A DNA stretch of 64,000 nt from Acidobacteriota bacterium (GCA_003133645.1 PKYI01000159.1:11381-75380); one strand, 5' to 3'; positions 48,729-64,000 are shown, numbered from the stretch's first letter. Numbers and translations: made by a program. The notes: a model not told the origin generated them from the letters alone.

Positions 48729-49496
48729 GTGATCCACGGTAAGAGGCTGCTGGTGGTCATGCCTGCCTACAACGCCGAGAGGACTCTGGAGCGGACCTGG
48801 TCCGAGATCCCCCGGGACGTGGTCGACGAGGTCATCCTGGTGGACGACGCCAGCCAGGACGGCACGGTTCAGGTGAGTCACAGTCTGGGTCTGCCGACTC
48901 TTGTCCACGAGAAGAACCTGGGGTACGGCGGCAACCAGAAGACCTGCTACGCGGCCGCGCTCGCCCGCAACGCCGACATCGTCGTGATGATTCACCCCGA
49001 CTACCAGTACGAACCGCGGCTGGTTCCGGCGATGGCCTCCCTCATCGCGCTCGGGGTGTACGACGTGGTGCTCGGGAGCCGCATCATCGGCAAGGGCGCA
49101 CGGCGGGGCGGGATGCCGCGCTACAAGTACGCCGCGAACCGCGTCCTGACCCTGGTCCAGAACCTGCTGCTGGGCGAGAAGCTCACCGAGTACCACACCG
49201 GGTGCCGAGCGTTCTCGCGCCGGGTCCTCGAAACGCTGCCCCTCGCGGCCAACTCGGACGACTTCGTGTTCGACAACCAAATGCTGGCGCAAACCCTCTT
49301 CTTCCGCTTCCGCGTCGGCGAGGTCTCGTGCCCGACCCGCTATCTCCCCGACTCGTCGTCGATCAATCTCGCGCGCTCCACCAGGTACGGGTTCGGCGTC
49401 CTCTGGACCAGCCTGCAATACCGCGCCGCCCGCCTCCGCCTCGCGCACCCGCGTATCTTCAACGGGTCCGGCCCGAGGGGTTCCGAGGTCTGTTGA
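48729..49496 (+). CDS. GT2 glycosyltransferase (polyprenyl-phosphate sugar synthase-like, soluble GT-A)
   Basis: LLVVMPAYNAERTLERT...VILVDDASQDGT...MIHPDYQYEP. Confidence 0.85.
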   Translation: MIHGKRLLVVMPAYNAERTLERTWSEIPRDVVDEVILVDDASQDGTVQVSHSLGLPTLVHEKNLGYGGNQKTCYAAALARNADIVVMIHPDYQYEPRLVPAMASLIALGVYDVVLGSRIIGKGARRGGMPRYKYAANRVLTLVQNLLLGEKLTEYHTGCRAFSRRVLETLPLAANSDDFVFDNQMLAQTLFFRFRVGEVSCPTRYLPDSSSINLARSTRYGFGVLWTSLQYRAARLRLAHPRIFNGSGPRGSEVC

Positions 49497-49656
49497 AAGC
49501 TCCTCCGATCGGGAGGGCGCTCCCGGCAAGACGCACACCCTTGGGGGGCTTCGAGGGCGCCGGTCGCTCCGCTTCGATGGCCGGCCCTGTCTCCGCGGTC
49601 ATTCTGACGCTGGTGTTGCACACCAGTCCGGATCAGTCTTTCAGCGCTATAGCCGG

Positions 49657-62266: not shown

Positions 62267-63406
62267 TCAGGAGGCTCCACCCGTGAAGTCGGGCGCCGCG
62301 CCGAGCATGCTGGCCTGCTCGGCGAGGTAGCGGGCGAACAGCGCGCCCCAGGGCGAGGTGCGGACGAAACTGCGCACCGCGCGCCGGCCGAACACCGGGT
62401 ACCAGAGGAAGTCGTGGTAGAGGTACGAGCCGGCGACGAAGACGTACACCAGCGGCGTGTGGAAGAAGAGCTTCTGTAGCCGCTTGAGCGGCCCGAACCA
62501 GAGCACGTCGCCGACGCGGCTCGCCAGGTTGTCGCCGACCGAGAAGTGCCAGTTCTCCCGGCCGGCGTCCGCGTCGCCGACCAGCTCGATGTCGCGCGGG
62601 TCGGCGACGCCGAGGCCGCGTTCGTGGGCGAGGGCGAGGTAGCGGATCGCGAGCGGGTCGAACCCCATCATCTTCGCCGCCACGGCGTCGATCGCGACCT
62701 GATCGGCGGCCGCCAGGAGAACGTCTTTGCGCACGGGGACCATCGTGCGCGGCCCCGGTCCGTTGCCGACCGTCGTCCCGTCCATCACGGCGAAGAGCCC
62801 GGTGTGGATCTCCTTCTGGATCGTGAGGAGGTCCACCAGCGTCTCGTGGATCCAGGTGTGAGTGTAGTGCCGGCGGGTCGCCAGCAGACCGCCGAAGGCG
62901 TTCTTCATCGCACCGGTCGTGGTGGTGTAGATGTGACACTTGACGGTCGGCAGGTGGACGATGTTGGTGCCGAGGAAGAACTCCGGGATCTGGATGCCGT
63001 CCGGGAACACCTTGGGCAGCGCGAGCATCTTCCCTTTTGGCTCGTATCGCACCCATGCGAGGTCGTGAGGGTCGCAGTTGTAACGCACCGGTATACCGTA
63101 GCGGCCGAGTACGCCGAGGTAGCCGTTGAGCCGCTCGCCCTTCTTCGGGTCGGTGACGACCGTGTCGTTCTGGATGCACACGAGGTCGGCGAGGCCGGCG
63201 GCGCGCAGCGCGAGGATCGTGCCCTCGAGCTGCCACGGCGTGGTGTTGGCGCCCGGGTACGGGTAGTGCCATGAAATGTTGTCCTTGAGGATGGTGGCGG
63301 TGCCGGGGGCAAGGGCATCCTTCACGCCGGCCAGCTCGCACAGGCGGCCGAGGTCGCCGAGAACGGTGTCGGGCCGGGTGCGCAGCACCGCCACGCGGCT
63401 CTTCAC
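62267..63406 (-). CDS. DUF362-domain protein with hydrophobic C-terminal extension
   Basis: GTG at 63406 follows GGAGG-N6 and overlaps the upstream stop (GTGA). VKSRVAVLRTRPDTVLGDLGRL...ILKDNISW...VHLPTVKCHIYTTTTGAMKNAFGG...VMDGTTVGNGPGP. C-terminal LVYVFVAGSYLYHDFLWYPVF. Confidence 0.65.
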   Translation of the reverse strand: MKSRVAVLRTRPDTVLGDLGRLCELAGVKDALAPGTATILKDNISWHYPYPGANTTPWQLEGTILALRAAGLADLVCIQNDTVVTDPKKGERLNGYLGVLGRYGIPVRYNCDPHDLAWVRYEPKGKMLALPKVFPDGIQIPEFFLGTNIVHLPTVKCHIYTTTTGAMKNAFGGLLATRRHYTHTWIHETLVDLLTIQKEIHTGLFAVMDGTTVGNGPGPRTMVPVRKDVLLAAADQVAIDAVAAKMMGFDPLAIRYLALAHERGLGVADPRDIELVGDADAGRENWHFSVGDNLASRVGDVLWFGPLKRLQKLFFHTPLVYVFVAGSYLYHDFLWYPVFGRRAVRSFVRTSPWGALFARYLAEQASMLGAAPDFTGGAS

Positions 63407-64000
63407 CGTGCGCCTCCAGCCACAAGGACGATGGTGCCGGCCGCGGCGATCCAAACGACGACGGTGACCAGCAGGGCGCGGTCGCGGAACAAGGTCGCCG
63501 TCGGGTCCTGCGCACCCTCGCGGTGGAGCAGCAGGAGGTAGCGCATGATGCCGAACAGCACGAGCGGCACCGTGAGCAACAGCGCGTTGGAACCGCCGAG
63601 CTTGCGCGTCGTGTCGGGCGCGACCGTGTACAGGGTGTACGTCACGAGCGTGACGCCGGCGAGCATCGTCACCACGTCGTGGAGGTACGACAGCGGGTAG
63701 CGGGGCGCCCGGCCGCCTCCTCCGGTCGCTTCCGGGAGGCGCTTCCCGAACGCCAGCAGGAGCGCGAGCAGAAAACCGCACACAACCAGCCAGTGCGAGA
63801 TCGTGACCGGGATCGCGACCGCGCCGGCGACCAGACGCAACAGGAAGCCGGCTGCGACCGCCATCGCGTCCACGACCGCCAGCGACTTGAGGATCAACGA
63901 GTACAGCAGGGTGACGAGGACGTACCCGCCGAGCACGAGCGCCGCCGTGGCGCCGCCCTCCAGGCTCAGAGCCGCCGCCGCGGCGAAGAGAACGGCAGCC
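63403..64000 (-). CDS. UbiA-family prenyltransferase, decaprenyl-phosphate phosphoribosyltransferase (DPPR synthase)-like; 5' end beyond the window
   Basis: The frame is open to nt 64000. YSLILKSLAVVDAMAVAAGFLLRLVAGAVA and following TM helices resemble the C-terminal half of Rv3806c-type UbiA enzymes (from memory). Confidence 0.55.
   Translation of the reverse strand, partial: AAVLFAAAAALSLEGGATAALVLGGYVLVTLLYSLILKSLAVVDAMAVAAGFLLRLVAGAVAIPVTISHWLVVCGFLLALLLAFGKRLPEATGGGGRAPRYPLSYLHDVVTMLAGVTLVTYTLYTVAPDTTRKLGGSNALLLTVPLVLFGIMRYLLLLHREGAQDPTATLFRDRALLVTVVVWIAAAGTIVLVAGGAR

Follow-up and report, generated by a model that had tools for sequence, protein, structure and literature searches.

A gene cluster at 48.7-64 kb of a 64,000-nucleotide stretch of DNA from an Acidobacteriota bacterium (GCA_003133645.1 PKYI01000159.1:11381-75380; the whole stretch is called the window below) probably encodes a periplasmic, lipid-carrier-dependent surface glycosylation pathway that combines a conserved core with a swappable middle. 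The host belongs to the Thermoanaerobaculaceae. The core is a minus-strand operon for a UbiA-family prenyltransferase, a DUF362 protein, and a 1592-amino-acid multimodular membrane protein, E. The middle is a low-GC cassette of genes for three large membrane proteins, B, C, and D, bordered on its other side by the gene for a soluble family 2 glycosyltransferase (GT2). Gene starts were set from frame-specific GC, candidate starts, and the public annotation of an identical 60-kb metagenome contig, and all genes listed for this region in a preliminary description of the sequence were found where that description had placed them.

The ubiA gene (63403-64000, minus strand) passes the window end; the window holds its C-terminal 198 codons, and the full protein of 288 amino acids, recovered from contig L001, has no extra domain. 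Its sole match in the PDB was Rv3806c (E = 3e-28), aligned over the full length, and the UbiA motifs YLVNDVLDREAD and GKRLPE align with those of Rv3806c; both NDxxDxxxD and GKR..E are retained. Loop II NDxxDxxxD and loop IV R..E have been defined previously as motifs of polyprenyl-phosphate phosphoribosyltransferases (PMC11127046). The NCBIfam models NF008977 and NF008978 for decaprenyl-phosphate phosphoribosyltransferase (DPPR synthase) gave 202 bits (cut-off 234) and 199.7 bits (cut-off 207), compared to no more than 47 bits, or about one quarter of the DPPR score, for models of heme o synthase, UbiA/quinone, chlorophyll synthase, and archaeal lipid prenyltransferases. Homologues of this UbiA that are linked to DUF362 genes in Ignavibacteria (L041) and Myxococcales (L036) passed the cut-off of 234, with 270 and 274 bits. 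Judged by these scores and motifs, the protein belongs to the DPPR synthase clade and is polyprenyl-phosphate phosphoribosyltransferase-like, in line with the resemblance proposed in the preliminary description.

The three genes of the core are co-directional. The DUF362 gene (62267-63406, minus strand, GTG start, 379 amino acids) overlaps ubiA by 4 nucleotides (GTGA) and is separated by 28 nucleotides from the gene for E (57460-62238, minus strand). A check of synteny, as proposed in the preliminary description, revealed that the order UbiA-DUF362-E is kept in 10 of 10 related Thermoanaerobaculaceae loci that reach far enough, with E as the last gene. The DUF362 protein, whose presence had also been noted there, matched PF04015 (E = 6e-21), carries an aromatic-rich C-terminal extension, and is 98-100% identical to proteins of Acidobacteriota metagenome-assembled genomes labelled Thermoanaerobaculaceae or 'Acidobacteria bacterium 37-71-11'. 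Relatives were found in at least 591 genomes in a scan of one genome per species; the best 80, at 63-98% identity, come from at least five phyla and include Acidobacteriota, Myxococcota, Ignavibacteriota, Bacteroidota, Chloroflexota, Methylacidiphilum, and candidate phyla. Among 1.8 billion representatives searched, 297 relatives were obtained at E ≤ 1e-30 and 4,324 at E ≤ 0.001; the former include full-length members with as little as ~35% identity in which the aromatic-rich extension is kept. In an alignment of 29 sequences, about 40% of the positions were invariant.

The most conserved motif of this subfamily is interrupted by inteins in at least seven representatives (P0165, P0166, P0168, P0176, P0177, P0221, and P0248), some of which include a LAGLIDADG homing endonuclease, and the insertion point is precisely the K156-C/T157 junction in the invariant HLPTVK-CHIYTTTTGAMKNAFGG. 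Inteins usually reside in active sites of important enzymes; no literature report of DUF362 as an intein host was found. DUF362 and the DUF2088 domain of the lactate racemase LarA are placed in one Pfam clan, CL0471 (PMC11770544). Like LarA, the DUF362 protein has an invariant H158-x9-K168, with a spacing equal to that of the catalytic His174 and the cofactor-binding Lys184 of LarA, the equivalence of the residues being a guess. In LarA1, the cofactor-binding and catalytic residues are R75, H108, H174, K184, and H200. Neither a sequence match nor a fold match to LarA was obtained: the DUF362 profile matched no PDB sequence, DUF2088/LarA did not appear even as a weak match when Pfam was scanned at E ≤ 10, a Foldseek search with a poor model of DUF362 gave nothing meaningful, and no nickel-pincer cofactor synthesis genes were seen near the DUF362 gene.

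We further surveyed the neighbourhoods of DUF362 genes in 82 genome loci, in which neighbours were recognised with seed sequences. The immediate neighbour was a DPPR-synthase-like UbiA in 20 loci, which fall into three phylum-level groups (Thermoanaerobaculaceae, Ignavibacteriota/Bacteroidota, and one Myxococcales genome with the opposite gene order); an EamA transporter lies downstream of DUF362 in five of these. An LPG_synthase_TM flippase-like membrane protein took the same place in 22 of the 82 loci, often followed by PMT_2 genes for membrane glycosyltransferases of the GT-C type, and a membrane GT2 in seven loci (eight loci have a GT2 within 6 kb). These neighbours link DUF362 to lipid-linked sugar pathways. 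The idea that a PAP2 phosphatase generally accompanies the UbiA-DUF362 module was dismissed, as one was seen in a single locus of the 82 (L070, 1.9 kb downstream of DUF362).

Several individual loci deserve mention. Other Thermoanaerobaculia (L013-L035; for example, L022:2401-3354) have DUF362 directly followed by an LPG_synthase_TM/TIGR00374 flippase-like protein and then by genes for PMT_2+TPR GT-C proteins, and in the database representative P0205 the two read as one fused protein (DUF362-LPG_synthase_TM), which is either real or a frameshift artefact. In a Chitinophagaceae metagenome-assembled genome (L070:7273-13583), an MsrP/MsrQ-like pair (Oxidored_molyb and Ferric_reduct) is inserted between the phosphoribose synthase and DUF362. 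Cassettes that replace the one described here (L087:2422-4716 and L006:10229-11746) contain another, divergent DUF362 paralogue of 318 amino acids; in L087 it adjoins an FAD-dependent oxidoreductase (NCBIfam PRK07233, 430 bits) and further GT-C/NHL proteins, a hint that enzymes of the DUF362 type repeatedly accompany GT-C genes. The representative P0265 (DUF362 with an epimerase and Omp85) is a probable assembly or gene-call chimera and was not used.

Protein E is composed of three modules: a PMT_2/PMT-type GT-C module (residues ~1-560), a polytopic DUF2298/Chlor_Arch_YYY module (~590-1310), and a beta-propeller of four NHL repeats (~1330-1592). The N-terminal module matched PMT_2 (E = 5e-16), PMT (PF02366, GT39; E = 1e-10), and GT87 (E = 8e-6), and carries a DE pair past the first helix, as in GT-C transferases. 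It also matched TIGR03663, the flippase activity-associated Agl23 model, weakly (E = 5e-7; 29 bits against a cut-off of 126). The middle module was recognised by DUF2298 (E = 1e-85) and by TIGR03662 (452 bits, cut-off 300); literature on DUF2298 (PF10060) is essentially absent. In hhalign comparisons of the DUF2298 module with the PMT_2 module of E and with the C and D families, the probability did not exceed 2%. The NHL part scored E = 1e-32, and PDB matches of E were confined to it, with the PknD sensor domain among the closest.

The GT2 gene (48759-49496, plus strand, 245 amino acids, with an alternative GTG start at 48729) encodes a PF00535 protein (E = 2e-20) for which no convincing membrane-spanning helix was found, the lone hydropathy peak (residues 98-116) lying inside the catalytic domain. 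Its best NCBIfam matches, AglJ, dolichyl-phosphate (Dol-P) hexose transferase, and PpgS, reached ~57 bits (E ~2e-15) against cut-offs of 325-375, and its sole PDB match was the Pyrococcus furiosus Dol-P-mannose synthase 5mlz (E = 1e-6). The preliminary description had called this protein a soluble GT2 of the polyprenyl-phosphate-sugar synthase type; solubility and family stand, and the synthase type is plausible, with NCBIfam matches that fall far below the cut-offs. We therefore treat it as a plausible candidate for a polyprenyl-phosphate hexose synthase.

The three cassette proteins were placed among the GT-C enzymes by different routes. Protein B (49657-51741, minus strand, 694 amino acids, ~12 membrane helices) is PMT_2/ArnT-like, matching PF13231 at E = 1e-11 (45.8 bits, gathering cut-off 26.1) and, weakly, the ArnT NCBIfam model. 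Protein C (52233-54080, minus strand, 615 amino acids) has at least nine membrane helices and a C-terminal alpha/beta domain; it had no Pfam or NCBIfam match, sequence methods failed to place it, and just 11 homologues, all metagenomic, were present among 5.8 billion proteins. Comparison of the C profile with PDB chains returned spurious armadillo designs only, which were discarded, and no GT-C protein. An AlphaFold2 model built from the 11 homologues (predicted local distance difference test score, pLDDT, 76; predicted template modelling score 0.78) was compared with the PDB by Foldseek; the best match was ArnT (E = 4e-7, template modelling score ~0.5), and the top 25 were all GT-C enzymes, with Pmt4, Pmt1/2, STT3/PglB, ALG12, EmbC, and AftA among the fold matches. 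The predicted fold of C is thus that of a GT-C enzyme with an ArnT/PMT/STT3-like architecture. GT-C enzymes carry catalytic acidic residues in the loop after an early helix, and this is the place of the invariant motif PPxNQTGFEELQTG of the C family, just past an early helix.

Protein D (54838-57324, plus strand, 828 amino acids) combines a PMT_2-like membrane domain with a C-terminal NPCBM module (E = 1e-26), the profile of which matched the NPCBM/CBM domains 7js4 and 2vmg in the PDB. Against PDB chains, the NPCBM module alone of the D profile was matched and no GT-C protein appeared; the PMT_2 match of D itself was sub-threshold (E = 0.014), and the D and C families were aligned by hhalign with a probability of 2.6%. 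PF13231 was found in 9 of 32 homologues of D, some of which are named 'ArnT-like' by JGI, and hhalign of the N-terminal module of E against the D family gave a probability of 92% (E = 5e-7). On this profile comparison, the PMT_2 module of E and the membrane domain of D are homologous, and the latter is hence assigned to GT-C. The NPCBM module points to a glycan acceptor for at least D. The earlier claim of four GT-C-type membrane enzymes was therefore borne out for B, C, D, and the N-terminal module of E by hidden Markov model, fold search, or profile comparison; since E holds two separate polytopic modules, 'four GT-C enzymes' may mean four or five membrane modules.

The strain-variable cassette with genes B, C, and D (49497-57459) had a GC content of 0.634, the lowest of any 8-kb stretch of the window, whereas non-overlapping segments of equal size all had at least 0.649 and the window as a whole is high-GC (0.679). 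The difference is concentrated in GC content at third codon positions (GC3), which was 0.763 for B, 0.716 for C, and 0.718 for D, compared to 0.893 ± 0.050 for the 33 other genes of the window (z = -2.6, -3.5, and -3.5). Values of 0.91-0.92, native to this genome, were obtained for E, DUF362 (a value that predates its corrected start), UbiA, and GT2; as E and UbiA flank the dip and are native in GC3, membrane-protein composition fails to explain it.

Public contigs that encode an identical Dxs were compared with the window by blastn. Contig L085 was 98.9% identical up to position 49478 and L086 99.3% identical up to 49433, where similarity stops; on the other side, L003 was 97.7% identical from 57668 on, over UbiA, DUF362, and most of E, and unrelated before that point. 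GT2 itself was 93-97% identical in all strain variants. In place of B, C, and D, the cassette of L085/L087 has a C allele of 76% identity, two other GT-C proteins (699 amino acids, and 886 amino acids with NHL repeats), an FAD oxidoreductase, and a second, different DUF362 protein. L086 continues after the breakpoint with a 575-amino-acid polytopic protein on the opposite strand, and L003 has a 605-amino-acid polytopic protein, another GT2, and a methyltransferase before it. The large proteins of the alternative cassettes were mutually unrelated by blastp and share a common shape of at least eight helices followed by a small C-terminal domain. As L086 covers the left flank only and L003 the right flank only, these two could be the ends of one cassette, giving at least three and possibly four types. 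In L007, from a related genus with ~75-82% nucleotide identity, E is directly followed by dxs, with neither GT2 nor a cassette. Seven of the 10 contigs with an identical Dxs (L088 and L090-L094 among them) end within ~1.3 kb past GT2, an assembly-break pattern that is typically expected where co-existing strains differ. The C alleles share 76% identity between strains whose Dxs is 100% identical, suggesting that C evolves fast or is exchanged frequently.

A 199-nucleotide direct repeat marks the left breakpoint zone: the 3' end of GT2 (49287-49485) recurs as a non-coding relic with 82% identity in the gap between B and C (51903-52101). In L085, the C allele comes directly after GT2, and similarity to the window resumes exactly at 51903. 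Gene B thus has a copy of the GT2 3' end on either side, an arrangement that can be explained as the footprint of a recombination that placed it between GT2 and C. No integrase or transposase was found in the locus and no inverted repeats at the region, and the nearest tRNAs are at positions 10.8 and 12.0 kb of the window; with the duplicated GT2 3' end as the only repeat, the arrangement fits homologous recombination and not a mobile element. O-antigen and capsule loci are known to be exchanged by homologous recombination in conserved flanks. Based on these sequence comparisons, the cassette between GT2 and E is best explained as being exchanged among strains in the same manner, so that co-occurring strains would display different surface glycans, as with O-antigen and capsule loci. 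Both the central GC dip and the horizontal acquisition of B, C, and D that had been suspected from it were in this way upheld. The low GC content of 49.5-57.4 kb could also be ordinary within-genome variation with no horizontal exchange, since other genes of the window have low GC3 (0.74 at 23240-24367, 0.77 at 27525-29993, and 0.79 at 8748-9800) and the flanks of the region have no integrase, transposase, or tRNA. However, the drop is in GC3 and not in amino-acid-driven positions, E and UbiA retain 0.91-0.92, near-identical strains differ in genes exactly between the compositional boundaries, and C alleles share no more than 76% identity in strains whose Dxs is 100% identical. Already contradicted by the strain comparison, the alternative cassettes, and the contig ends, this explanation is very improbable.

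The closest precedent for the core is a three-component framework in which a polyprenyl-phosphate phosphoribose synthase and a phosphatase produce undecaprenyl-phosphate-ribofuranose, a flippase exports it, and a GT-C enzyme adds the sugar outside the cytoplasm (Kelly et al., 2024; PMC11127046). In such systems, ribose is turned into xylose or arabinose where optional epimerases are present, and lipid-linked pentose synthases paired with periplasmic GT-C enzymes are known outside the Corynebacterineae, as with TfpW of Pseudomonas aeruginosa (PMC11127046). By its sequence features, the core operon fits the first and last steps of this framework. As in the ORF15-ORF14-ORF12 system of Citrobacter youngae O1/O2 (PMC11127046), a UbiA-family synthase with NDxxDxxxD and R..E motifs adjoins a GT-C protein (here E), GT-C proteins have additional binding modules outside the cytoplasm (a CBM in Citrobacter, NPCBM and NHL in the present locus), and the locus feeds strain-level glycan diversity. 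In contrast to that enterobacterial system, the 288-residue synthase of this acidobacterium has no fused HAD phosphoribose-phosphatase domain, no MATE/SMR flippase and no SDR or DprE1/E2 epimerase accompany it, DUF362 is coupled to the synthase, and the GT-C protein is a PMT_2+DUF2298+NHL fusion in place of a GT136-type protein, its own membership of GT136 being unlikely in view of the PMT_2, PMT, and GT87 matches.

The mycobacterial decaprenyl-phospho-arabinose pathway (Rv3806c, Rv3807c, DprE1/DprE2, and Emb/Aft) resembles the locus in the full-length alignment of UbiA with Rv3806c, in having several GT-C enzymes close together, and in the presence of EmbC and AftA among the fold matches of C. 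It differs in that the acidobacterial locus has no PAP2 phosphatase and no DprE1/DprE2, leaving no evident arabinofuranose route, its GT-C proteins belong to the PMT_2/ArnT-like branch and not to Emb/Aft, and its cassette is strain-variable and not an essential core. The GT2 arm is closer to the Gtr (GtrA-GtrB-GtrC) and ArnC/ArnD/ArnEF/ArnT systems: a probable maker of a polyprenyl-phosphate sugar lies beside ArnT-like GT-C proteins, the transferases are variable and horizontally exchanged as in Gtr, where they are serotype-converting, and ArnD modifies a lipid-linked sugar before flipping, which is the type of role proposed for DUF362. Unlike in Gtr and Arn, the GT2 has no C-terminal membrane helices of the GtrB/ArnC kind, there is no GtrA or ArnE/F flippase and no prophage context, and DUF362 is unrelated to ArnD. 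The preliminary description had seen a DPPR-like logic outside the Corynebacterineae; predicted donor synthases with GT-C enzymes are indeed present, the analogy to arabinose found no support, and, as such systems are already published (Kelly et al., 2024), the general concept is not new. What is new here is the lineage, the DUF362 partner in place of the known accessory enzymes, the PMT_2+DUF2298+NHL transferase, and a swappable cassette with the orphan GT-C family C.

In the pathway that we propose, UbiA would make a lipid-linked pentose donor, as suggested by its homology and motifs, and DUF362, translationally coupled to it, would process that donor, the most economical guess, made with low confidence, being removal of the 5-phosphate or epimerisation. 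The donor would then be flipped to the outer face, perhaps by one of the modules of E or by a protein whose gene lies elsewhere, and E would transfer the pentofuranose to an extracytoplasmic acceptor, probably held by the NHL propeller. In a second arm, the soluble GT2 would form a polyprenyl-phosphate-hexose used by B, C, and D to add further residues; in the comparison with L007, the cassette and GT2 occur or are missing jointly. Neither the locus nor the ~73 kb around it revealed a recognisable HAD or PAP2 phosphatase, a MATE, SMR, or GtrA flippase, DprE1/E2, or an SDR epimerase, and there is no FAD_binding_4 oxidase or locus-linked SDR, the sole SDR of the window lying beside FabH at 37.5-38.2 kb. 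It is because of this lack of a phosphatase, flippase, or epimerase within ~73 kb that DUF362 is proposed for the missing donor-processing step. With neither DprE1/E2 nor an SDR epimerase in that range, the analogy to the arabinose pathway lacks support, and the default donor would be polyprenyl-phosphate-ribofuranose unless DUF362 is itself an epimerase. That DUF362 acts on the lipid-linked pentose at all is a tentative suggestion that we consider somewhat less likely than not. Bolder, and also less likely than not, is the proposal that the whole subfamily is an unrecognised lipid-linked sugar maturation enzyme working at the cytoplasmic face on polyprenyl-phospho-(5-phospho)ribofuranose, either as a 5-phosphatase or as a LarA-like hydride-transfer epimerase.

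Several observations weigh against the proposed pathway. All of its steps are drawn from homology or gene order, and two or three of them have no assigned protein. The UbiA score falls just under the curated NCBIfam cut-offs for DPPR synthase, GT2 has no membrane anchor of the kind seen in GtrB/ArnC-type synthases, and no similarity between DUF2298 and GT-C enzymes appeared in hhalign. The AlphaFold2 model of DUF362, built from a shallow alignment, is poor (pLDDT 60) and matches nothing, its best Foldseek hit, LarE at E = 0.16, not being meaningful. In 32 of the 82 DUF362 loci, mostly from Myxococcota, no glycosylation neighbour was detectable with the seeds, and in Polyangia the DUF362 gene lies downstream of enolase. 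The acceptor, moreover, may be a polysaccharide or a protein, the NHL part of E leaving the latter possible.

The last point leads to an account that differs from the proposed pathway in the acceptor alone, with the GT-C proteins acting as PMT-like protein O-glycosyltransferases on secreted or S-layer proteins and GT2 making polyprenyl-phosphate-mannose, for which the mycobacterial Ppm1/Pmt pair is a parallel. The N-terminal module of E matches PF02366 (PMT, GT39; E = 1e-10) beside PMT_2, the structural matches of C include Pmt4 and Pmt1/2, NHL propellers usually bind proteins, with the PknD sensor domain among the closest PDB relatives here, and the closest solved relative of GT2 is a Dol-P-mannose synthase. 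Set against these points are the NPCBM carbohydrate-binding module of D, the best fold match of C to ArnT, which is a lipid A transferase, the Wzy_C ligase-like gene and GT4 nearby, and the breadth of the PMT_2 family, which includes many enzymes with non-protein acceptors. We consider protein acceptors unlikely, though a serious contender.

Two further explanations concern the core operon. One of the membrane modules of E, either the PMT_2/Agl23-like or the DUF2298 module, may be the missing flippase, in which case E would unite a flippase, a transferase, and an acceptor-binding domain. Purified Agl23 of Haloarcula hispanica translocates a lipid-linked oligosaccharide in liposomes (PMC11182771), so that a member of the family to which the E N-terminus is weakly similar is flippase-active in vitro; the operon has no other flippase candidate, and DUF2298 has no detectable similarity to PMT_2 modules. 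However, the TIGR03663 score of 29 bits is far from the cut-off of 126, PMT_2 and PMT match the same region far better, the DE pair past the first helix is GT-C transferase-like, and flippases are often encoded elsewhere in the genome, which makes a flippase module within E rather improbable. The UbiA and DUF362 proteins may instead form a product unrelated to the GT-C enzymes, for example a prenylated cofactor, a lipid, or a phosphoribosylated lipid with a use elsewhere, their adjacency to glycosyltransferase genes being lineage-specific and coincidental. This would account for Ignavibacteria and Bacteroidota, in which UbiA-DUF362(-EamA) is found among the housekeeping genes for FtsY, MutL, Maf, and methylmalonyl-CoA mutase with no GT-C gene within 6 kb, and for a UbiA score under the equivalog cut-offs. 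Yet the UbiA proteins adjoining DUF362 in Ignavibacteria and Myxococcales do pass the DPPR cut-off, the UbiA-DUF362-E order is kept across the Thermoanaerobaculaceae, elsewhere DUF362 adjoins flippase-like proteins followed by PMT_2 GT-C genes, and GT-C genes need no linkage to donor-making genes. An unrelated product is accordingly regarded as distinctly improbable.

The surroundings of the locus are of mixed character. GT2 is preceded by the housekeeping operon xseA-xseB-ispA-dxs and, farther upstream, by GT4, Trm112, and Wzy_C ligase-like genes; the GT4 and Wzy_C ligase-like genes at 41.6-44.2 kb provide an envelope-polysaccharide context that supports the surface-glycosylation reading. Past the window end, the identical contig carries, beyond ubiA, genes for a divergent 536-amino-acid protein without a family match, an FtsJ/TlyA methyltransferase, and MetH. 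Within the cassette, the 750-nucleotide gap between the divergent genes C and D (54087-54837) holds a short open reading frame (ORF; 54240-54530, GC3 0.79) and is probably non-coding or a gene remnant. A 185-amino-acid ORF at 54093-54650, called in a single public record, was rejected as a gene, given its GC3 of 0.65, its non-coding look, and its absence from the calls on the identical contig. Promoter and terminator scans of 48.5-58 kb gave signals at shuffle level. Elsewhere in the window, an AbiEii toxin/AbiEi antitoxin pair (type IV toxin-antitoxin; 8748-10603, GC3 0.79-0.82) adjoins tRNA-Ala (10787-10862) and is possibly another acquired segment. A low-GC3 patch at 22489-24367 (0.73-0.74) contains a regulator of the HTH and IrrE/M78 peptidase type (23240-24367) and an ORF without a family match (22489-23292). 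A Tricorn-like protease (PD40, PDZ_Tricorn, S41) and a MASE1-PAS hybrid histidine kinase at 515-4240 and 5576-8374 are ordinary and unrelated.

To our knowledge, almost nothing is known of the surface glycans of Acidobacteriota, which are abundant soil and sediment bacteria, and the locus is a concrete candidate for periplasmic decoration with pentofuranose and hexose in this phylum. It also provides a clear natural case of GT-C cassette swapping between co-occurring strains, which suggests phage or predator pressure on the surface glycan. For the DUF362 subfamily, conservation like that of a core enzyme, inteins, and repeated synthase-like or flippase-like neighbours offer a testable handle on a large DUF family. 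If the proposed maturation role is true, DUF362 would be a single-protein stand-in for DprE1/DprE2 or a 5-phosphatase of a new type, and a widespread pentofuranose donor pathway would extend across Acidobacteriota, Myxococcota, Ignavibacteriota, Bacteroidota, and Chloroflexota. The role of DUF362, once assigned, would fill the missing pentofuranose donor step wherever the known phosphatase and epimerases are absent.

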